Below are positions 10,565 to 62,387 of a stretch of 64,000 nucleotides of DNA, one piece after another. The position numbers and the translations under genes were made by a program. The DNA comes from an uncultured Gammaproteobacteria bacterium (GTDB lineage: Bacteria > Patescibacteriota > Microgenomatia > CAYQLK01): the NCBI GenBank assembly GCA_964404855.1, contig CAYOLO010000001.1:443009-507008 (forward strand). The letters run 5' to 3'. Within the stretch, counting starts at the first letter, position 1; every line of letters starts with the position of its first letter. The notes under the pieces were generated by a model. The model searched no databases. It was not told where the DNA came from and was given only the letters and a program-made list of their open reading frames with translations.

Positions 10565-11758
10565 ATGGAAGAAAATATTTCTGAAAATAAACTAAAAAAT
10601 AGATTTAATATTTTATCTTTGCTTAAAAATCCAAGTGCAGTACTGATTGTTGTGGCGTTAGTCATTGTCGGTTTGGTGGTTTATCTGCAGAATTCAGGAC
10701 GGGTTAATTTTAAATCTTCAGAAAATAAACAGTCCAGCGTATCGGAATCTGGGTCAAAAGAGAAAATTAAGGTATTGCCAGAGGAATCTTTGGTTATCGA
10801 CGTAGTCAAACAGACAAGTCCATCGATTGTTTCAATTGTTGTGCAAAGGTCCGGAACTTCGAATCTTTTTTCACCGTTTAGTGGTGGTCAGTCGCAAGAG
10901 TCGGGTATTGGAACAGGGTTTGCTGTTGATAAAAATTTGATTTTGACGAATAAGCATGTGGTTGCGGCCGGCGGTCGTTTTACGGCAGTAGCGAAAGATA
11001 AGGACGGAGAAGAAAAAGAGTATAAAGTGACGGAGATAAATATGGATCCATTTAATGATTTAGCGATATTGAAAATTGAGGAAAATAATTTGGTTCCTTT
11101 GACCTTGGGTGATTCTGAGGGCTTACAGGTTGGCCAGTTGGTTATTGCGGTTGGTAATGCTTTGGGGCAATTTGATAATACCGTCACAACTGGTGTGGTG
11201 TCGGGTCTTGGTCGAGGAATTACAGCATCTGACCCTTTTGAGTCAATTGCTGAACGATTAGATAATCTTATCCAGACTGATGCTGCAATTAATCCTGGTA
11301 ATTCTGGTGGCCCATTACTTAATTCGAGTGGTCAAGTTATCGGAATTAATACAGCTGTGGCTGGGGCGCAAAATATTGGTTTTGCAATACCGATTAATGT
11401 TGCGGTTGAGTTGTTGGACGGATTTAAGCGTGAGGGAGGCAAAATTGTTAGACCTTTTTTGGGTGTGTCTTACACAGTTATAACGAGAGAGGTTGCAATA
11501 CTTAACGAATTACCTGAAGGTATTTATGTTGAATCAGTGGCAATTGATAGTGCGGCGGATAAGGCTGGCCTAGCTGAAGGAGATATTATCACTGCTATTG
11601 ATGGTCAAAAACTTGACGATAAGAATCAATTATCTGAAATAGTCAGAAAGAAAAAGGTTGGAGATACAGTAACGATAAGTTTGTATAGGGATGGGGAAAA
11701 ATCAGAGATGCAGATAAAGCTCGAAGCGGCTCCAGAGGAAGTGACCAGATCGAATTAA
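10565..11758 (+). CDS. htrA: HtrA/DegP-family trypsin-like serine protease with PDZ domain
   Basis: Catalytic triad context TNKHVV / DLAILK / GNSGGPL, with a C-terminal PDZ domain. Confidence 0.9.
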   Translation: MEENISENKLKNRFNILSLLKNPSAVLIVVALVIVGLVVYLQNSGRVNFKSSENKQSSVSESGSKEKIKVLPEESLVIDVVKQTSPSIVSIVVQRSGTSNLFSPFSGGQSQESGIGTGFAVDKNLILTNKHVVAAGGRFTAVAKDKDGEEKEYKVTEINMDPFNDLAILKIEENNLVPLTLGDSEGLQVGQLVIAVGNALGQFDNTVTTGVVSGLGRGITASDPFESIAERLDNLIQTDAAINPGNSGGPLLNSSGQVIGINTAVAGAQNIGFAIPINVAVELLDGFKREGGKIVRPFLGVSYTVITREVAILNELPEGIYVESVAIDSAADKAGLAEGDIITAIDGQKLDDKNQLSEIVRKKKVGDTVTISLYRDGEKSEMQIKLEAAPEEVTRSN

Positions 11759-19955: not shown

Positions 19956-20039
19956 GCCGGGGTGGCGGAATTGGTAGACGCGCACGTCTCAAACACGTGT
20001 GAAAGCAATTTCATGTGGGTTCAAGTCCCACTCCCGGCA
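19956..20039 (+). tRNA. tRNA-Leu (anticodon CAA), class II with long variable arm
   Basis: GCCGGGG acceptor stem, D-loop AATTGGTAG, anticodon loop CTCAAAC, long variable arm, T-arm GTGGG-TTCAAGT-CCCAC. CCA is not encoded. Confidence 0.85.
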
Positions 20040-20222
20040 CATCGTTGAAATGAGCTTGATAGTAGGGAGTTTAGACGAAGTCCATTTTTCCTAAATTGGG
20101 AGCAATAAATTATTTAGTTCAAGTTTTTTTATTTCTATTTATCACAATCGTATCGACAGCTATAGGCTATTGTAGTAGTATTTGTGGCTAGCACTTTAAG
20201 CAAAGGAAGGTAGAAACTACAA

Positions 20223-21056
20223 ATGCCTGTACTTCTAGACGAAGGCAAAGACAGGATCATTGTCGCGCTTGATACTCAAAAGGTCCCCGAAGTTTCCCGT
20301 TTGGTTCAACTGCTTGCGCCCCATGTGGGGATGTTCAAGGCAGGCTTCGAGTTGACCAACGCGGTTGGAACCGCAAGGGCTCTACGGGCGATCAAGGTAA
20401 ACGGCGGGAAGGATTTCGCGGATGTCAAATTCCACGATATTCCCCCAACCGTTCTCAAGGCTGTTCAGGCAGTGGCGGGCTTCGGTCCTCATTTTCTGAA
20501 CATGCATATTCAGTCAGGTGATGCGGCGATGCAGGGTGCGGTTGCTCAAAAGGGCAACAGCTTACTGCTTGGCGTGTCAATTCTGACCTCTCTCGACCCT
20601 CAAGAGGTTCTTGAGATGTTTGTCGAGCCGTTTATTGCAATGACAGGACACGACTACGAGTACGGTCAGGCCATGGCAACAGACAGCGAAGACGCGGAAC
20701 TCGCCAAGCACGCTGTAGAGTTGCGTACTGAGTACATGAACAGGTTGGTTTTGGGCCTTGCTGAGAAAGCAGCCCGAAACGGTCTCGACGGCCTCATCTG
20801 TTCACCGCTCGAGCTCAGGTATCTCAAAGAACACGGCTCGGAAGCAGTGCATAACCTTATCAAGGTTGTGCCTGGTATCCGCATGCCGAATTCAGACGCT
20901 GACGACCAACAAAGGGTGGGAACGCCCTACCAGACAATTATTGACGGGGCAGACTACCTTGTGGTCGGGAGACCGATTCTCACTGCAGCAGATCCCGTTG
21001 CAGCTGCTCAAGCGATTGCGGCAGAGATTGACCGCGCGCTTGACGACATGGACTGA
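20223..21056 (+). CDS. pyrF: orotidine 5'-phosphate decarboxylase (long/type 2 form)
   Basis: IVALD and K..FHDIP motifs. GC ~55% island. Confidence 0.85.
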   Translation: MPVLLDEGKDRIIVALDTQKVPEVSRLVQLLAPHVGMFKAGFELTNAVGTARALRAIKVNGGKDFADVKFHDIPPTVLKAVQAVAGFGPHFLNMHIQSGDAAMQGAVAQKGNSLLLGVSILTSLDPQEVLEMFVEPFIAMTGHDYEYGQAMATDSEDAELAKHAVELRTEYMNRLVLGLAEKAARNGLDGLICSPLELRYLKEHGSEAVHNLIKVVPGIRMPNSDADDQQRVGTPYQTIIDGADYLVVGRPILTAADPVAAAQAIAAEIDRALDDMD

Positions 21057-21084
21057 AACAAGGGAGGGCAAAGTAGGTACGACA

Positions 21085-21744
21085 ATGCCAAGCGAAGAGA
21101 GAGTTGTTCGCACGATTCTCGAAAAATCAGGTGGGCTAATGATTGGGGGACACTTCGTGTTGTCCGACCAAAAGCACACTGATCGATATGTCGAGAAGAC
21201 ACGATTTTTGCGCCGCGTCGACTATCTCCAGATTCTGGCAGATATGATTGCCAAGGCGTACAGCAAAAAGAACATCGAAGTCGTGATTGCTCCCGCGGTC
21301 GGAGGTATCGGACTGGCAGCAATTGTTGCTTTTAGGATGATGCAGGCTGGTTATGGAGCAGCGGCAGAAATCCAATGGGGGTACGCTGAGCCTGTTCGCG
21401 ATAAGGACGGCGAGCTTATCCTCTACGAACTAAAGCGCGGATTCGCGCAGATGGTCGAAGGCAAAAGAGTACTGGTGGTTGAAGATGTAATCACCACAGG
21501 CAGGTCTGCTGCTCTGGTGGTCAAGGCAGTTCGAGCCAACGACGGCAACGTCGTAGGTTTGAGTGCAATCATCAACCGTGGAAGAGTAACGTCGCTTGAC
21601 GTTGGTCATCCGGGGTATTTCAAGCCTCTTCTGACCATCGACCTTCCGGTTTTTGAGCCTCAAAATTGTGAACTCTGCAAGTTCAATATCCCTGTTAATC
21701 AGGAGTTTGGACACGGAAGAGAGTTCATGCTCGGCAGGATTTAA
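21085..21744 (+). CDS. pyrE: orotate phosphoribosyltransferase
   Basis: PRTase PRPP-binding motif VLVVEDVITTGRS. Start placed at MPSEER; the longer ORF overlaps pyrF out of frame. Confidence 0.8.
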   Translation: MPSEERVVRTILEKSGGLMIGGHFVLSDQKHTDRYVEKTRFLRRVDYLQILADMIAKAYSKKNIEVVIAPAVGGIGLAAIVAFRMMQAGYGAAAEIQWGYAEPVRDKDGELILYELKRGFAQMVEGKRVLVVEDVITTGRSAALVVKAVRANDGNVVGLSAIINRGRVTSLDVGHPGYFKPLLTIDLPVFEPQNCELCKFNIPVNQEFGHGREFMLGRI

Positions 21745-21777
21745 GACCAAACAAGGTAAAAGGAGGAATTTACGAAA

Positions 21778-22062
21778 ATGGCTCAACCAAGCAGAAAAAT
21801 CGGACGAGCCACATGTGTGAGTTGCGGGTTTACTGACCTGCACTCCTTCTTTCAGCTACTACGTGGTGAGGACCCAAAATGTCCTGACTGCAAATCAACC
21901 AACGTGGCTGAAGGTGAGCCTGATCTTAGGTGTACTGGCTGTGGGCAAACTACTGTTCCGCGCAGACACCGACTGAACATGGCAGTTGCGCCTCTACGGT
22001 GCGTGGGTTGTGGATCGGATTCGTTTGAGGCTGTGCCAAAAGTGCCAGCGGGATACATTTAA
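21778..22062 (+). CDS. zinc-ribbon (multi CxxC) hypothetical protein
   Basis: Three CxxC pairs (CVSCG, CPDC, CTGCG, CVGCG). GC-rich, in the same island as pyrFE. Confidence 0.5.
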   Translation: MAQPSRKIGRATCVSCGFTDLHSFFQLLRGEDPKCPDCKSTNVAEGEPDLRCTGCGQTTVPRRHRLNMAVAPLRCVGCGSDSFEAVPKVPAGYI

Positions 22063-33130: not shown

Positions 33131-33167
33131 TAAAAAAAAGCCTCCGCTGCGGTTAAGCAACGAAGGC
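33131..33167 (-). terminator. intrinsic terminator (minus strand) ending the GC-rich ncRNA candidate
   Basis: On the minus strand: 12-bp stem agccttcgttgc-ttaacc-gcagcggaggct followed by TTTTTTTT. Confidence 0.7.
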
Positions 33168-33922
33168 TGTAATTGGTTGGCAGGGCCGCAATCACGTGTA
33201 GTGACAACGGCCCAAGTGGCGGGGTAGTATTTTCCGATTGACCGGCGGTGCTCGCAATTGAGCCGTGCCCATCAAACGGGGTTCACACTCCCCTAGGTTT
33301 TGCCTCCATAGCTTGGAGGTGGCTGCCCTACTTTTACGTCGGGGCGGACGGGCGGCCTAAAATGCGGCGGCCGATTGTCGTGACGAGACTGTGGCCTCGG
33401 CACGGGCCAGCCTAATTCGCGGGTGGCCTTCACTAGTGCCAGTTCGGCACAGCAAAACTTCGGGGAGCGCGAGCTGGTTGCCCGCGCTCCTTGCGGTCTC
33501 GGAAAACCCCCGAGACAAGGCAAAAAAAAGGACAGGCATGGCTAAGCTTGGGGTTTGATTTACAATGTGGGTACCGGATTCTCATGCGCTGAGATTCAGG
33601 CCTGAACACAGTGCTCGTCTTACCTTTTAGCAGGAAGAGGCCTCATTTCTCGTTAGTTCCCCCAGAGGGCAGAGGGGTCGCTGCAGAGTTAATAAGGTCG
33701 GCAACTTGCTTTTTCTCCCTTGTCGTGACCATGGCGCATCCTGCCCCGTTCCCCTTTTCCCCATTATGGGTAGGTGGTTCTTAGGCACGAAAGCCTTCGA
33801 ACTCCAGAGGGAGACGCTTCGAAGCGTTTAAGCTAAAACGCTACCAAGTGTTTCCCTCTAGATTGGGACAAAATGTCACTGTCGTAATATTTTTTATATG
33901 TGCGCAGTTAGTAAATAACTGT
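33131..33922 (-). ncRNA. candidate large structured ncRNA (~790 nt, GC ~58%, no ORF), class unassigned
   Basis: Lies between a perfect consensus promoter and an intrinsic terminator. Strong local GC excess in an AT-rich genome, as for rRNA/tRNA. Many stable hairpins (e.g. cctccaagctatggagg, gtctcgg-N7-ccgagac). The small ORFs in the region are GC artefacts. Confidence 0.55.
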
Positions 33923-33929
33923 GGAGAAC

Positions 33930-33958
33930 ATTATACACATTATTGGTCAATATGTCAA
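33930..33958 (-). promoter_or_regulatory. consensus sigma70 promoter TTGACA-N17-TATAAT (minus strand)
   Basis: Plus strand attata (33930-33935) ... tgtcaa (33953-33958), which is TTGACAtattgaccaataatgtgTATAAT on the minus strand. Confidence 0.75.
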
Positions 33959-34023
33959 GTACTATAGGTTCTCGCTTTAGTTATTCGAAAAAGGCTTGGG
34001 TCCCCCACTTTTTCTCTAACTAA

Positions 34024-34056
34024 AAGCTACAAGCCTGCGTTTTGGGAAACCCAAAA
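34024..34056. repeat. copy of AGCTAC-N-CCTGCG + hairpin motif (gttttggg-aaa-cccaaaac)
   Basis: agctacaagcctgcgttttgggaaacccaaaac. Related copies at 2426-2470, 2587-2631 and 34064-34126. Confidence 0.6.
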
Positions 34057-34177
34057 CTAGAGACAGTTTGCGCTACGTCCTGCGCAGAGAATTAATTAAA
34101 TAAGTTAATTCTCTCGTTGAGACAGGAGGCCTGATGCTAGGGGCTAATTATTTTGGTCATCAAGGAATATTTAACGG

Positions 34178-36799
34178 CTACCCTCGAGGTTTGAGTTTAG
34201 GAGTTTCGTCAGTTTTTTCTTTCGACTCCCCTGCCTTTCTTGGTTGTTTTGGTTTTGTGCTGTTTGATTTGGTGGAAAGTTTGCCTGAGGAGACTGTTTT
34301 ACCTTTTTTGTTGGTACTTGGGTTGTCACCTTCTTCTTCTTTGGCAATAGTAGTTGCGGCCGAAACAGTATCGCCACTCTTACTAAATCTCATCAAAGTT
34401 ACGCCTTGTGTGTCTCGGCCGAGTTTTGGGATGTTTTTGAGAGGAAGTCTAATAATTTGACCTTTTTTGGAGGTCAGTACCAGTGATTCGTCTTGAGCGT
34501 TAATTAGTTCAGCTGAAACGATTTTGCCTGTTTTGGCAGTAATATTTGCAGCTTTTACTCCTTTGCCTCCCCTACCCTGCATTGTCCATGCTGTGGCAAG
34601 TGATTTTTTACCAAAACCGTTTTCGGTGACAATTAGAAGTTCGTCTTTGTCGTTGTCGACGTGTCCAACGGTCAGTCCAATGACTGATCCTCCGACTTTG
34701 AGGTTAATACCGCGGACACCACGTGTGTCGCGAGCTGTGGAGCGGATGTTTTTCTCGTTAAATTTAATGGATTGGCCATTATCAGAGACAATTAGGATGT
34801 AGTCGGACCCACTGGTCAGTTTGGCCCAGCGTAGTTCATCACCATTGTCGAGGTTAATAGCAATAATGCCTGTTTTTCTGATGTTGCTGAATTTTTCAAT
34901 TGCGGTTTTTTTGACCACACCTTTTTTGGTTACTAGCAAAATATTGGCATCTAGGGGTGTTGTTTTGGCAATTGGAAGGATTGAGAGGATTTCTTCTCTT
35001 TGCTCAATATCGATAAGGTTAATGATGGCTTGGCCTTTGGCGACTCTAGAGCTTTCTGGAACCTCGTATGTTTTGAGTTGGAAAACTCGACCCCTGTTAG
35101 TAAAGAACATTAGCGAATCGTGAGTTTGACAGCGAATCAGATGTGAAACCACATCTTCTTCTTTGGTGGTGATACCGCTAACACCCTTACCGCCACGGCG
35201 CTGGGTTTTGAAGGTGCTTGGAAGCTGGCGTTTGATGTAACCAGTTTGAGTGATTGTGACAATGGTTGGTTCGTTGGCAACTAAGTCCTCTTCAGAAAAT
35301 TCACCAATTTTGTTTTTAACAATCTTTGTGCGCCTAGCGTCACCGTATTTTTCTTTGATTTCTAGTAGTTCATTCTTAGCAACAAGAAGGATTTTTTCTG
35401 GATGAGCAAGTAAATCTTCTAGATAAGCGATTATTTCGCGAACCTGTTTGAGCTCCTCTTCGATTTTGAGTCTTTCTAGAGCTGCAAGTCTTCTGAGCTG
35501 CATGTCTAAGATTGCTATAGCTTGAAGTTCGGATAGTTTGAACTTGGTCATTAATTGACCTTTGGCCGTATCGGCGTCGGGGGCGGCGCGAATTATGCGA
35601 ATGACTTCATCAATGTTATCAACCGCGATTTTGAGTCCTTCGAGAATGTGTTCGCGGGCCTTTGCGGCTTTGAGGTCAAATTCGCTACGCTTGGTAATGA
35701 TGTTTTGGCGGTGTTTGATAAACTCTGACAGCATAATATTAAGCGTCATTGTTTGAGGCACACCATCAATAAGACCAACAGCGTTAACAGAGAAGTTTTG
35801 CTGCATAGCAGTTAGTTTGAATAGGTTGTTGAGTGTTGATTGGGGTTTGGCATCGCGCCTTAGTTCGATGGTAATACGCATGCCTTTGCGGTCTGAGTCG
35901 TCGCGAAGATCAGCAATACCTTGAATCTTTTTGTTGCGAACAAGATCAGCCATTCTTTGGATTAAAACAGACTTGTTAACTTGATAAGGGAGTTCGGTGA
36001 TAATGATTTGGAATTTGCCATTTTTGCGTTCTTCAATATCGGCTTTGGCTCTAGTAATGATTCTGCCGCGACCTGTCGCGTAAGCGGCTGTAATTTCTGC
36101 TTGGTCGTAAATAATTCCGCCGGTTGGGAAGTCTGGACCTTTGATAAATCGAAGTAAGTCTTCAACTGAAGCTTCGGGATTGTCGATTAGGTGTACAGTT
36201 GCGTCAATCACTTCCGACAAGTTGTGTGGCGGAATTGAAGTCGCCATACCGACGGCAATACCGTTGACACCGTTAAGTAAAAGATTAGGAATAACAGAAG
36301 GTAAAAGATTAGGCTCTTTGAGTGTACCGTCGAAATTGTCGCCCCAGGTGACTGTGTCTTTGTCCATATCGCGAAGTAGTTCGCTAGCGATTGCCGACAT
36401 ACGACATTCTGTGTACCTCATAGCGGCCGCTCTATCTCCGTCGACAGAACCGAAGTTACCCTGACCGTCAATTAGCGGGTAACGCAAGGAGAAATCCTGA
36501 GCCATTCTGACTAGAGCTTCATAAACAGGACTATCTCCGTGTGGGTGGTATTTACCAAGCACTTCTCCGACAACCTTGGCACATTTTGAGTAGTGTGCAG
36601 TATGACTTAGGCCGACTTTGTACATGGCATAAATAATGCGTCTCTGAACTGGCTTAAGCCCATCTCTAACATCAGGTAAAGCGCGAGCGACAATAACACT
36701 CATTGCATAGTCGAGGTATGAGCGCTTCATTTCAGCGACAATGCCACTTTGAATGACTTGTCCAATGTAGTTAATATCAGTAACGACGTTTTCTGCCAT
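34178..36799 (-). CDS. gyrA: DNA gyrase subunit A (with Lys-rich C-terminal tail)
   Basis: Active-site region AAMRYTE, a GyrA-box-containing CTD with beta-pinwheel repeats, 873 aa. Confidence 0.95.
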
Positions 36800-58988: not shown

Positions 58989-61622
58989 TTGTTTACGGCG
59001 AACTGGATTGTTAGAATAATAAGGATGTTGAAGGTTCCACAGTCTTCTGGTCATAAAAGACCAGTCTATTTTTCCGGCACAACTAAAAGATTACTTTTTT
59101 CGCGTAAAAGCAAAAAGGCCAAACTTGTGGCGTTTGCAACGACCGCTTTGATAGCAGGTTTGGTTGTAATGATTGTTTTTATCGGAATTCTTTTTGCAAT
59201 TGTTTCAAGGAGTTTGCCCTCGCCGACAAAACTTACAGAAAGGGATCAAGAGTTGTCGACGAAGATTCTGGACAGAAATGGCAAGCTTCTTTATGACGTT
59301 TATGGCAACGAAAACAGGTCACTCGTTGAGCTAAAGAGTCTCCCGCCATATGTTCCACAAGCATCGATTGCAATTGAAGACCAGAATTTTTATAAACACG
59401 GAGGTTTTAGTCCGGTTGGTTTTATTCGTGGTTTTGTAAAAACTGTGTTTTTTGGTGACACTCAGGGTGGTTCGACGATTACTCAACAGTTGGTTAAAAA
59501 AGCCTTATTAACTGATGAGCAGACTTTGACACGTAAGTTTAAGGAATTTATTTTGGCTGTTCAAATCGAGGGAAAATACTCCAAAGATGAAATACTGCAG
59601 ATCTATCTTAATGAGATTCCATACGGTGGTACTGCTTCTGGAATTGAAGCTGCTGCGCAGTTATATTTTGGTAAAACCTCAAAAGATTTAACTCTTACCG
59701 AAGCAGTAATTTTGGCTGGACTTCCTCAGAGGCCGACATATCTGTCGCCTTTTGGTCAGAACCCAACTGCATATATTGATAGGTCAAAAGATGTAGCAAG
59801 AAGGATGCGAGAGGATAATTACATTACCAAAGAACAAGAAGAGCAGATTGTATCAGAACTACCCAGTGTGGTTTTTGCGAAATCAAACGAAACCTTCAAA
59901 GCTCCACATTTCGTTTTTTATATTCGTGAACAGTTAGAACAAGAGTACGGCGAATCAGTTGTGCAATCTGGAGGTTTAAAAGTTACGACGAGTTTGGATT
60001 TGGATTTGCAGGAAGAAGCTCAAAAAATCGTATATGACGAGGTAACCAAGCTTGCCGATCTTAATGCTACCAACGGTGCTGCGGTAGTGACTGATCCAAA
60101 AAATGGTGAGATTTTGGCAATGATTGGTTCGAAAGATTATTTTGATGAAGAGTATGACGGTAAATATAATGTTGCAACAGCTTTAAGACAACCAGGGTCT
60201 TCAATTAAGCCTGTGACATATGCAACCGCAATAGAGGAGGGTGTGCCATCTAGCACTGTGATTATGGATACACCGACGGAGTTCCCTGGTGGGGCCGGAC
60301 AGCCACCCTACAAGCCTGTGAACTACGATAGTAAGTTTCATGGCCCAACTCAGCTTAGATTTGCTTTAGCTAACTCTTATAATATTCCCGCCGTTAAGTT
60401 ACTAGCTATGGTTGGCGTAAAAAGCATGCTACAGACAGCCTACGACATGGGGCTTTCGACTCTTGAGCCGACGAATGAGAACATGAAACGATTTGGATTG
60501 TCAGTTACCTTAGGAGGTGGCGAAGTTAAGTTAATTGATATGACCACGGCTTTTGGAGTATTTGCTAATGGTGGTCGTAGACAAGAACCTGTTTCGATAT
60601 TAAAAATTGAAGACCGTAAAGGCAAAACACTTAAAGAAAATAAACCTAAAGAAGGGCCAAAAGTTCTAAGTGAAGAAACCTCATTTATTATTTCTCATTT
60701 CTTGTTAGACAATTCTGCGAGGTCATCGGCTTTTGGTGCTGGATCAAGCTTGGTAGTGCCAGGAAAGACTGTTTCAGTCAAAACCGGTACAACGGATGAC
60801 AAGCGCGATAACTGGACGATTGGATACACACCATCAGTCGTTGTGGGCGTTTGGGTTGGTAACAATGACAATAGTGCGATGAATCCTAAGATTTCTTCAG
60901 GACTAACAGGAGCTTCCCCAATTTGGAATAAAATCATGAGTTATGCTTTAAAAGACAAAAAAAGTGAAGATTTTAAGGTGCCTTCAAATGTGACCTCTCA
61001 AGTAATTGATGCAATTGGTGGTGGTAAGCCTTGTCGGGATTTTGCAACGAGAGCTGAATATTTTGTAAAAGGCACAGAACCTTCGGAAGATTGTTTGAAG
61101 TTTAAGAAGGTAAAGGTAAGTAAATCTACGGGCAAACTTGCTAACGACTTGGAGATAGCTAAGGGTGAATATGACGAAAAAGAGTATTTTGTTTTTAACG
61201 AAGAGGATCCGATTTCGACGGACGGTAAGAATCGTTGGCAAGAAGGAATTAATGCTTGGGCGGCGACCCAAACCGATGAAAGATATCGTCCTCCAACAGA
61301 GAATTCTGATGGTAAATCATCTGTTTCTGATACGGATGTGATTCTTGATATGGATAGACCAAGGGACAAAGATCAAGTTGAGTTGAAGGTCACGATTAAG
61401 GCTAAGGTTACGGTTAAAGACGATAGTAATGTTGAAAAGTGTGAATTGTATATCGATGACAATAAAGTCAAAACAAATCAAGGCTTAAGCCCTGAGTTTG
61501 AGTATCTATTTACTGATGGTCAAAAAGGTAAACATAAGATTAGAGTGGCATGTAATCTCAAAAACGGTGGTGTTGGTAGCAAAGAGATAAATGTGTCTGT
61601 TGGCCAACCTTGGGTGGATTAG
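58989..61622 (+). CDS. class A penicillin-binding protein (PBP1A, transglycosylase/transpeptidase) with C-terminal extension
   Basis: GT51 motifs EDQNFYKHGG and GGSTITQQ. Transpeptidase SSIK, SYN and KTGT motifs. About 200 aa of extra C-terminal domain. Confidence 0.9.
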   Translation: MFTANWIVRIIRMLKVPQSSGHKRPVYFSGTTKRLLFSRKSKKAKLVAFATTALIAGLVVMIVFIGILFAIVSRSLPSPTKLTERDQELSTKILDRNGKLLYDVYGNENRSLVELKSLPPYVPQASIAIEDQNFYKHGGFSPVGFIRGFVKTVFFGDTQGGSTITQQLVKKALLTDEQTLTRKFKEFILAVQIEGKYSKDEILQIYLNEIPYGGTASGIEAAAQLYFGKTSKDLTLTEAVILAGLPQRPTYLSPFGQNPTAYIDRSKDVARRMREDNYITKEQEEQIVSELPSVVFAKSNETFKAPHFVFYIREQLEQEYGESVVQSGGLKVTTSLDLDLQEEAQKIVYDEVTKLADLNATNGAAVVTDPKNGEILAMIGSKDYFDEEYDGKYNVATALRQPGSSIKPVTYATAIEEGVPSSTVIMDTPTEFPGGAGQPPYKPVNYDSKFHGPTQLRFALANSYNIPAVKLLAMVGVKSMLQTAYDMGLSTLEPTNENMKRFGLSVTLGGGEVKLIDMTTAFGVFANGGRRQEPVSILKIEDRKGKTLKENKPKEGPKVLSEETSFIISHFLLDNSARSSAFGAGSSLVVPGKTVSVKTGTTDDKRDNWTIGYTPSVVVGVWVGNNDNSAMNPKISSGLTGASPIWNKIMSYALKDKKSEDFKVPSNVTSQVIDAIGGGKPCRDFATRAEYFVKGTEPSEDCLKFKKVKVSKSTGKLANDLEIAKGEYDEKEYFVFNEEDPISTDGKNRWQEGINAWAATQTDERYRPPTENSDGKSSVSDTDVILDMDRPRDKDQVELKVTIKAKVTVKDDSNVEKCELYIDDNKVKTNQGLSPEFEYLFTDGQKGKHKIRVACNLKNGGVGSKEINVSVGQPWVD

Positions 61623-61655
61623 TTTTCCTAACAATAATAAACAAAATATTTTTGG

Positions 61656-61690
61656 CAAGAAAAAAGGCCGGAGCTTTGTGGGCTCCGGCC
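61656..61690 (-). terminator. intrinsic terminator (minus strand; stem also usable on plus strand)
   Basis: ggccggagc-tttgtgg-gctccggcc. On the minus strand it is followed by TTTTTTCTT; on the plus strand only by TT. Confidence 0.7.
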
Positions 61691-62308
61691 TTAACGGCGG
61701 AATTGGCGAATTTGTTTTCTGTCGCTTCGCCGGCTACGACTTTTCTTTAAGTCCCTGTAACGCTGGGCAGCGGTGAGGCGTTATACCGTGTCGCGACTAA
61801 TGGCCTGGCGTTCAGGCCTGCGCTGCATGATTACTCTCCTCTCTTAACCCTTTACCGTGCTTATGGGATTGCCTTTAAGGTTGTCTCCTTGAAATAAGAA
61901 AGAAAACAACATTTTGGGCTACACGGAAGGTGAAGTCCGAGTCGGGCGACGTTTCTTGACTGACGGTCGCCTACGCTTGCCCTCATTTCGGTAGAGGGCT
62001 TTTTGAAGGGGGCTGATCCACTTCTTGTTGCAGATTGCTTATAGGGCTTACTGCAAGGTTGAAGCTAAACAGCCTGACAGAATCAGACATCCATATGTGG
62101 TCGTGCTCCTTTTACTGCCCTTGGTTTTTTCTGCCGCGCATTTGGTGCGGGATTACCTTGGGCGGTTTGGTCGATGAGGTCACGAAAAAAATGGAGTCCT
62201 CGGCCACCTTCTATTGGCTTGTTACAGACCAGAAGGATTTGGCGGCCTCATGTCCTTATTACCTCCACGTAATATGAAAGAACTATGAACAGCAATTAAG
62301 CTATCCAT
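61656..62308 (-). ncRNA. candidate large structured ncRNA (~650 nt, GC ~55%, no ORF), class unassigned
   Basis: Bounded by a perfect consensus promoter and an intrinsic terminator on the minus strand. GC-rich in an AT-rich genome. Contains an internal hairpin+T5 (61979-62004, plus-strand sense). Confidence 0.55.
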
Positions 62309-62315
62309 TGCGATA

Positions 62316-62344
62316 ATTATACCCTATAGTTATATATATGTCAA
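62316..62344 (-). promoter_or_regulatory. consensus sigma70 promoter TTGACA-N17-TATAAT (minus strand)
   Basis: Plus strand attata (62316-62321) ... tgtcaa (62339-62344), which is TTGACAtatatataactatagggTATAAT on the minus strand. Confidence 0.75.
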
Positions 62345-62387
62345 GGGTGTTTAGTCTGGGGATTTTGGTTTAAAAAAGACCCTAGAA

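Follow-up and report, generated by a model that had tools for sequence, protein, structure and literature searches.

A probable structured RNA gene with its own consensus promoter between pheT and a penicillin-binding protein gene in a Curtissbacteria-like bacterium

The 64,000-nucleotide (nt) stretch of DNA analysed here (the window) contains a gap, at positions 61623-62387, that is flanked by two convergent genes: a class A penicillin-binding protein gene (PBP1A, hereafter PBP) on the plus strand and pheT on the minus strand. This gap, which follows pheS-pheT and which we term locus 2, had been described in an earlier reading of the sequence (the original prediction) as a locus of ~650 nt downstream of pheT, free of open reading frames (ORFs) and bounded by a promoter and a terminator. 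The neighbouring gene and the lack of coding capacity are as stated there: the longest ORF of the region encodes 80 amino acids (aa), and none is conserved. A minus-strand promoter, TTGACA-N17-TATAAT, agrees with the consensus at 12 of 12 positions, as had been claimed. Exact matches to this pattern occur only twice in the window, at locus 2 and at 33930-33958 (locus 1), and both precede ORF-free loci rich in guanine and cytosine (GC); when up to one mismatch is allowed, four matches are found, compared to 0.65 expected. The locus ends, on the same strand, in a GC stem followed by T6, although the stem measures 11 base pairs (bp; eight of them G-C, 61692-61664) and not the 9 bp first proposed. 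Likewise, the transcribed body is GC-rich (0.50, versus ~0.39 in the genome and the surroundings), but less so than the ~55% given originally. From the sequence features described below, locus 2 is probably a real, independently transcribed gene for a structured non-coding RNA (ncRNA), which would define a new family restricted to one Curtissbacteria-like clade.

The named relatives of the PBP (55-59% identity) are Candidatus Curtissbacteria, and the organism is therefore a Curtissbacteria-like member of the Patescibacteria. Identity of pheT sets apart a small clade (at least 55%) from all other sequences (40% or less). Every member of this clade that was fetched has pheT, a gap of 400-870 nt and a convergent PBP gene, and in each gap (eight lineages) an ORF-free body lies between a promoter and a terminator, always in the same orientation. 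The predicted RNA is ~650 nt long in the window, 648 nt in L087 (the same in L088 and nearly so in L220), 746 nt in L241, 578 nt in L242 and its equal L243, 480 nt in L244, 360 nt in L001, 401 nt in L081 and its equal L245, and 251 nt in L246, the minimal form, to which L239 is nearly identical. Homologues were searched for by sequence pattern, BLAST and profile hidden Markov model (HMM); the profile built from the eight homologues spans positions 62309-61660 and finds no further copy in either the window or the 2.6 Mb of loci searched. In the more distant sister Curtissbacteria (L082, L083 and L089), PBP and pheT abut or overlap without a gap, and no gap follows pheT in other Patescibacteria. 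The conserved synteny within the clade, the gapless sisters and the lack of a second copy indicate a single-copy insertion specific to the clade. A search of Joint Genome Institute metagenomes with a 20-base core pattern returned 29 matches, of which only L220 was real and the rest were chance matches in high-GC DNA. Within the clade, aa identity is 87-99% for the PBP versus 51-95% for the adjacent pheT, a disparity in rate that is unusual for neighbouring housekeeping genes. Two of the records, L001 (CAYGIG010000002.1) and L003, carry the title 'uncultured Gammaproteobacteria'; by gene content and closest relatives they are Patescibacteria, and the records are probably mislabelled.

The body of the predicted RNA changes slowly. 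Its identity to L220 is 0.92-0.94, compared to 77% (PBP) and 74% (pheT) at third codon positions (Fisher p = 5e-21) and 79% in the untranscribed spacer between PBP and the terminator; the PBP of L220 is itself 99% identical in protein sequence to that of the window. The same holds at greater distances, with identities of 0.77 in the body versus 0.57-0.60 at third codon positions for L241, and of 0.60 versus 0.40-0.46 for L242. Divergence in the body is thus 3-4 times slower than at neighbouring third codon positions. Conservation across relatives had been proposed as a check on the original prediction, and by this measure locus 2 is under purifying selection. A small-protein messenger RNA (mRNA) or type I toxin was considered and rejected, as no ORF is conserved on either strand and indels shift the frame. 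Of 11 indels relative to L087, 10 are 1-2 nt long and not multiples of three. ORFs called on the antisense strand in L001 and L081 show no homology beyond the conserved nucleotide block.

The minimal form of L246 was used to define the core of the RNA, ~250 nt of which are kept across the variants; the features of the locus are listed in Table 1. The promoter is found in all eight lineages, with an invariant -35 hexamer, a -10 hexamer of TATAAT, TACAAT or TAAAAT, and TATAGG in front of the -10. The stem of the 5'-terminal hairpin, P1, takes the forms UAGC/GCUG, GCAG/CUGC, GACU/AGUC, CGGU/ACCG and ACGG/CCGU, and all four counted pairs change on both sides. It is followed by a joiner with the consensus CUUU(A/C)A.AUUAU..GGGAGG. 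The longer forms carry entire hairpin modules as insertions, placed after the joiner (CUUU..GGAGG) and after the AUGGAUG motif. The expansion domain is absent from L244, L001, L081 and L246; its hairpin GGCCGCC..CCUUCU..AGAAGG..GGUGGCC (62202-62247) is kept as a helix of different sequence (AUCCUC/GAGGAU) in L242. The central domain contains the hairpins GUCUGA-UUCUG-UCAGGC (62072-62088), GCCCUC-N9-GAGGGC (61979-61999) and GGCGAC-N15-GUCGCC (61945-61971), and in L241 central stems become GCCCG/CGGGC (GCCCUC/GAGGGC in the window) and GUGGC/GCCAC. An internal hairpin with a T5 tract, placed by the original prediction on the plus strand at 61979-62004, can indeed be read there as GCCCTC-N9-GAGGGC; its loop is 9 nt long, and our automated hairpin scan missed it. 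The suggestion that it might split the locus into two RNAs is not borne out, since in the RNA sense it is a helix of a lineage-specific insertion, in L241 its plus-strand T-run is interrupted, and the short variants lack the element.

The motif CGCGACAC is invariant across the variants and occurs in the context GGAG-N7-8-AUG-N-AGCGC, P-alpha, (A/G)UAAGN-CGCGACAC-(G/A)G (61786-61839). The P-alpha stem exists in six versions, all of them paired: GGCCUG/CAGGCC, GGUCC/GGACC, CGGAAG/CUUCCG, GGUCUG/CAGACC, CGGCC/GGCCG and GGCAU/AUGCC. A module is inserted into the P-alpha loop of L244 (7320-7400), where an expansion of ~70 nt replaces the usual loop of 5-8 nt; the most conserved module therefore accepts insertions. 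Further downstream, the loop of a short hairpin (stem 1) reaches over an A-rich strand to pair with a segment 7-10 nt downstream, forming an H-type pseudoknot. Three versions of stem 1 are found (GUCG/CGAC, GGUC/GACC and GAGUC/GACUC), and six of stem 2 (GGCGAA/UUCGCC, GACGAA/UUCGUC, GACGGA/UCCGUC, GGCGG/CCGCC, GACA/UGUC and GACG/CGUC); the second of these, in L087, represents a compensatory exchange of G-C for A-U relative to the window. The terminator stem shows an A-U to U-A swap (GGAGC/GCUCC versus GGUGC/GCACC). The long-range helix between the C-rich strand and its upstream partner, predicted by RNAalifold in the long variants, is tentative. Possible equivalents are GGGAGG/CCCUCC in L081, GGGAG/CUCCC in L001 and UGAGGC/GCCUCA in the window group, with none clear in L246, and a double change from A-C to G-U is seen between the window and L087. 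For the 5' and central fold we tried two schemes, one pairing the purine-rich segment with the C-rich strand and the other pairing the AUG segments with each other; neither fits all eight variants.

Table 1. Genes and predicted elements at locus 2. Positions are those of the window; RNA elements are given in the sense of the predicted transcript.
Feature	Position	Strand	Description
PBP1A gene (class A penicillin-binding protein)	58989-61622	+	
pheT	62388 to past the window end	-	
Sigma-70-type promoter	62316-62344	-	-35 TTGACA 62339-62344; 17-nt spacer; -10 TATAAT 62316-62321
TATAGGG	62322-62328	-	Conserved 3' half of the promoter spacer
Predicted ncRNA transcript	61660-62309	-	~650 nt; start ~7 nt after the -10, end at the terminator U-run
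P1, 5'-terminal hairpin	62285-62308	-	AUGGAUAGC-UUAAUU-GCUGUUCAU; same place in 8/8 variants
Joiner	62262-62280	-	CUUUCAUAUUA...GGAGG (CUUUAACAUUAUU..GGGAGG in short variants); aligned in all variants
Expansion domain	62110-62261	-	Long variants only (window, L087/L220, L241, L242)
Core motif GGAG-N-AUGGAUG	62088-62109	-	GGAGCACGACCACAUAUGGAUG; AUGG(A/C)UG in 8/8 variants
Variable central domain	61840-62088	-	Stacked hairpins; length and content vary by lineage
Shine-Dalgarno-like GGAG, 7-nt spacer, AUG	61826-61839	-	GGAG-N7-8-AUG in 8/8 variants; spacer sequence varies
P-alpha	61786-61824	-	AGCGC, hairpin GGCCUG-AACGC-CAGGCC, internal loop AUUAGU, CGCGACAC (61788-61795), GG
C-rich strand GCCUCAC	61773-61779	-	Tentative long-range partner of AUGAGGC (62245-62251); RNAalifold, long variants
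P-beta hairpin CGCU-GCCC-AGCG	61761-61772	-	GGCC-UGCUC-GGCC in L001 and L081; absent in L246
H-type pseudoknot	61705-61740	-	Stem 1 GUCG 61737-61740/CGAC 61721-61724; stem 2 GGCGAA 61726-61731/UUCGCC 61705-61710; A-rich loop 3 AGAAAACAAA
PBP-sense terminator-like element	61721-61748	+	Antisense of pseudoknot stem 1, then TTTTCTTT; ~100 nt past the PBP stop
Intrinsic terminator	61660-61692	-	AAGGCCGGAGC-CCACAAA-GCUCCGGCCUU + U6; kept in 8/8 variants

The original prediction had also proposed conserved structure as a check, and a secondary structure is kept across the relatives with compensatory changes. In a curated alignment of the helices, all 196 of 196 cells are paired and both partners have changed in 17 of the 25 pairs, a result reached by none of 500 shuffles. 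P-alpha, stem 2 and the terminator were also recovered with compensatory changes by plain MAFFT and RNAalifold; the register of the pseudoknot was lost in the MAFFT alignments. In the 3' domain the window differs from L087 by ~11 substitutions, all of which leave the proposed helices intact. Compared to shuffled sequences, the minus strand of the window locus folds with a z-score of -4.5, and the 251-nt minimal form reaches -4.1 in the sense and -2.75 in the antisense direction. The minus strand is favored as the RNA-sense strand by the constant orientation of promoter and terminator, by the G-U pairs in P1 (where the opposite strand would have A-C), by the A-rich linkers and by the z-score of the minimal form. 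Read on the other strand, the hairpins and A-rich linkers become a string of hairpin plus U-run terminators. The features generally expected of an ncRNA gene are thus present at the sequence level: a conserved promoter and terminator of its own (8/8), covarying helices and purifying selection.

Comparison with known RNAs, as had been suggested, gave no match to transfer-messenger RNA (tmRNA), RNase P RNA or any other family. At gathering score, Rfam 15 matched only a tRNA-Leu in the whole window, and only tRNAs in seven homologous loci (98 kb). With E≤10 and permissive filters, locus 2, locus 1 and the minimal homologue yielded only chance matches to terminator-like small RNA (sRNA) and microRNA models. 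tmRNA was rejected since ARAGORN finds none in the window, Rfam gives no match at E≤10, and a tRNA-like domain, in which the paired ends form an acceptor with T-arm and CCA, is lacking; internal ORFs that might serve as a tag frame differ in length and frame among the lineages and are reduced to AUG-UAG in three. RNase P RNA of type A or B, with its P4 helix and conserved regions CR-I to CR-V, has no covariance-model match in locus 2, locus 1 or the minimal homologue, either at gathering score or at E≤10. 6S RNA, a rod of ~180 nt whose ends pair and which has a large bubble in the middle, likewise has no Rfam match, and the termini of the locus 2 RNA, whose length ranges from 251 to 746 nt, form a 5' hairpin and a 3' terminator and do not pair with each other. 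The OLE, ROOL, GOLLD, HEARO and raiA models of Rfam 15 gave no match at E≤10. A sponge RNA of the CsrB/RsmZ type was rejected because GGA counts equal the shuffled expectation in seven of eight variants, and a riboswitch or cis-regulatory leader because, in all lineages, only the convergent 3' end of PBP lies downstream of the terminator. A search of the collected loci for the complement of CGCGACAC, as a possible antisense target, gave nothing consistent. We found no report of such an RNA in bacteria of the Candidate Phyla Radiation (CPR) in a literature search.

Although no described family matches, the RNA belongs to a known kind, the large orphan structured ncRNAs of bacteria, as a new family within it. 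Like OLE, ROOL, GOLLD and the raiA motif, it is a stand-alone gene of several hundred nt with its own promoter and terminator, covarying helices, A-rich linkers and a few invariant internal-loop motifs; it is clearly richer in GC than the AT-rich genome around it, occurs in a restricted range of organisms, and sits in a context that does not reveal its function. Unlike them, it is found in Patescibacteria, in a far narrower range of eight lineages, without sequence or structure match to any of them in Rfam 15 at E≤10. OLE is associated with the proteins OapA, OapB and OapC, while ROOL and GOLLD occur in tRNA or prophage neighborhoods. Locus 2, in contrast, lacks associated protein genes and a tRNA or prophage neighborhood, and its RNA varies three-fold in size by modules. 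The pseudoknot invites a second comparison. H-type pseudoknots with an A-rich loop 3 form the cores of preQ1-I and SAM-II riboswitches and are known from telomerase and viral frameshift signals; the pseudoknot of locus 2 resembles these in that a loop pairs downstream across a 7-10-nt A-rich strand and both stems covary. It differs in being one module of a larger RNA that has no downstream sense gene, no coding frame and no Rfam riboswitch match.

The RNA would function through its fold. Its most likely role is that of a stable RNA that binds protein or serves as a scaffold, with recognition through the invariant internal-loop and single-stranded motifs. This role is favored by the combination of compensated helices, invariant loop and junction motifs, and tolerated module insertions. 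Such a pattern appears typical of RNAs that are recognized in three dimensions by a protein or within a ribonucleoprotein (RNP), and atypical of base-pairing sRNAs or mRNAs. Coding, or long-range pairing to a target, is probably not the mode of action. A bolder and quite tentative proposal is that the RNA is the founding member of a CPR-specific class of large modular structured RNAs and acts as a stable RNP component comparable to OLE or ROOL; it may then be associated with the ribosome via GGAG-N7-AUG or, alternatively, the pseudoknot and terminator may form a sensor that sets the level of antisense transcription into PBP.

Several points weigh against the interpretation as a structured, protein-binding RNA. 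The plus strand of the window locus folds about as well as the minus strand (z = -4.0), and the RNA-sense strand contains more C than G, an uncommon bias in structured RNAs. Helix strands were aligned by hand and chosen by eye, which biases the alignment towards pairing, and eight sequence variants from one narrow clade make for weak covariation statistics. Part of the conservation in the 3' ~100 nt could serve the 3' untranslated region (UTR) or terminator of PBP instead. Finally, protein binding as such is a mode that we only infer.

The overlap with PBP deserves separate consideration. No terminator precedes the RNA gene on the PBP side, and the first PBP-sense terminator, formed by the antisense of pseudoknot stem 1, lies within it; the two transcripts are therefore predicted to overlap by ~90 nt. 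An equivalent plus-sense hairpin with a T-run was flagged in L001 and L081. The last ~90 nt of the RNA would be complementary to the 3' end of read-through PBP1A mRNA, as a side effect or as a second function, and co-transcription could couple the RNA and the PBP mRNA via duplex formation or transcriptional collision. It is conceivable, but in our view unlikely, that this is the primary function, i.e. that the RNA is a cis-antisense or convergent regulator of PBP1A that pairs or collides with its transcripts, with the body providing stability or sensing a signal that sets read-through of the terminator into PBP. In every lineage the RNA runs towards PBP, with 35-60 nt between its terminator and the PBP stop codon; the pseudoknot sits directly upstream of the terminator, an arrangement reminiscent of riboswitch expression platforms, and the PBP is unusually conserved in the clade relative to pheT. 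However, the overlap covers only ~90 nt of an RNA of 250-750 nt, whereas selection and covariation extend over the whole body. The A-run that forms the PBP-sense terminator is found in six of eight lineages, the exceptions being L244 and L246; no alternative antiterminator strand that would pair with the terminator stem was seen, and the constant synteny may simply reflect vertical descent in a narrow clade. Convergent antisense transcripts, some under riboswitch control, are known from excludon-type loci and from the B12-riboswitch-controlled AspocR of Listeria. Locus 2 resembles these in that a predicted ncRNA with a strong promoter converges on a protein gene, overlaps its 3' UTR and carries a structure right before the ncRNA terminator, but most of its conserved RNA lies outside the overlap.

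The Shine-Dalgarno (SD)-like motifs could instead mean that the RNA is an mRNA or binds ribosomes, with GGAG-N7-AUG and GGGAGG...AUGGAUG acting as micro-ORF or start-stop initiation sites whose occupancy is itself the function. The GGAG, the AUG and their 7-8-nt spacing are invariant in all eight variants while the sequence of the spacer varies, and some changes after AUGGAUG fall on third positions (GCA/GCG/GCU, ACC/ACU). Nevertheless we regard this explanation as improbable. The two SD-like/AUG sites head ORFs of 0-24 codons without a conserved peptide: those starting at AUGGAUG encode MDV, MDAST, MDAPTSLVV (each followed by a stop) and others, and the GGAG-N7-AUG site leads, for example, to MQRRPERQ.., whereas its AUG is followed directly by UAG in L244, L081 and L246. 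Frameshifting indels occur even between close relatives, 13-15 nt separate the upstream SD-like motif from its AUG, GGAG is no more frequent than in shuffled sequences, and the purine-rich and AUG segments have plausible partners inside the RNA.

Locus 2 is an insertion relative to the sister lineages, its GC content is above that of the genome, its length differs greatly among lineages, and the window has an island of higher GC at another site that was probably acquired. It could accordingly be read as a non-functional relic of foreign DNA, a dead gene or a mobile element with a fortuitous promoter. This reading is very improbable, as the sequence evolves 3-4 times more slowly than synonymous-like sites, retains promoter and terminator in eight of eight lineages, shows compensatory changes, and is free of terminal repeats, target duplications, protein remnants, and phage, plasmid or viral matches. 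BLAST against phage and plasmid collections gave no match to locus 2, and a loose core pattern with more than 120 matches in viral contigs produced no real homologue by profile search. A translated search (tblastn) of locus 2 against the proteins that follow PBP in other Curtissbacteria revealed no similarity. A mobile element, such as a miniature inverted-repeat transposable element or the remnant of an insertion sequence, was rejected, as no flanking or terminal repeats or target duplications were seen and neither the window nor any of the 246 loci searched contains a second copy.

A very divergent housekeeping RNA (tmRNA, RNase P RNA, 6S RNA or signal recognition particle RNA) missed by the standard models is the least credible explanation, even though the promoter is of the strongest type in the window, the RNA is structured, with A-rich linkers and a pseudoknot, and Rfam finds none of the four elsewhere in the 64 kb: no model matches at E≤10 with lax filters, the tRNA-like domain is lacking, the 5' end is a local hairpin unpaired with the 3' end, the length varies three-fold, and the gene is absent from this site in sister Curtissbacteria and has no distant homologue that we could find, while a universal RNA would not be restricted to a clade. 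Some likeness to tmRNA (SsrA) exists, in that locus 2 would be expected to produce an abundant stable RNA with an H-type pseudoknot, A-rich linkers and a short internal frame, but the acceptor and T-arm, a conserved tag frame and paired ends are lacking.

If the bolder proposal above is correct, the RNA, under selection in a genome of ~1 Mb and with one of the strongest promoters present, represents a new class. CPR bacteria (Patescibacteria) are ultra-small and have genomes of ~1 Mb with little spare DNA, and to our knowledge almost nothing has been described of their ncRNAs beyond the universal ones. Selection on a gene of 0.25-0.75 kb with a consensus promoter, within a cluster of housekeeping genes for translation and the cell wall, suggests that the RNA matters to its host. 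The 251-nt form of L246 should be tractable for structure probing and pull-downs, and the insertion of whole helices into a fixed core offers a small-scale view of how structured RNAs grow. The significance is limited by the known range, a single small clade.

Locus 1, which also lies on the minus strand (33139-33958), directly downstream of gyrB-gyrA, is an ORF-free stretch of ~785 nt with up to 59% GC. It shares the promoter-plus-terminator architecture of locus 2, as had been noted, with its promoter at 33958-33930 and a terminator of a 12-bp stem and T8 at 33168-33139. The proposal that the two loci are paralogous found no support: single-sequence searches and the eight-sequence profile match the promoter only, and both CGCGACAC and AUGGAUG, the invariant motifs of the core, are absent from the body of locus 1 (33.1-33.9 kb), the nearest other match to CGCGACAC in the window being at 34725, within gyrA. 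Even the promoter flavour thought to be shared is limited to the consensus hexamers and CTTGACATAT, since the TATAGG spacer of the locus 2 homologues is absent from locus 1. Locus 1 has no Rfam match either, and is probably a second, unrelated novel ncRNA. An RNA-guided system at this site was considered and rejected, its neighbors being gyrB and gyrA.

Other parts of the window contain features of a different nature. Positions 1-400 have 56% GC and no Rfam match, and include an ORF of 106 aa (43-363) without a Pfam match. A block of 49-54% GC at 20223-22060, which follows the tRNA-Leu (19956-20040), encodes orotidine monophosphate decarboxylase, a phosphoribosyltransferase and a small Cys-rich protein. 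This block has the appearance of an acquired island, not of an RNA; not every GC-rich patch of the window is therefore non-coding. A repeated element of ~45 nt, AGCTAC-N3-CCTGCGTTT-[hairpin]-AAACTAG, occurs on the plus strand at ~2432-2470, ~2592-2632 and ~34015-34058, and on the minus strand of L001 at 11649-11707. Copies are found just upstream of the locus 1 promoter and, in L001, between pheT and the RNA promoter. The stem of its hairpin covaries (CAGG/CCTG, TGGG/CCCA, TGTG/CACA). The element starts with GTTTTAGCTAC and ends with GAAAC, which resembles a CRISPR repeat, and it is not in an array. A tandem duplication of ~162 nt (~2.2 copies) at 2340-2700 repeats the last ~30 nt of an MgsA-type AAA+ ATPase gene (1231-2370) together with the ~45-nt element.

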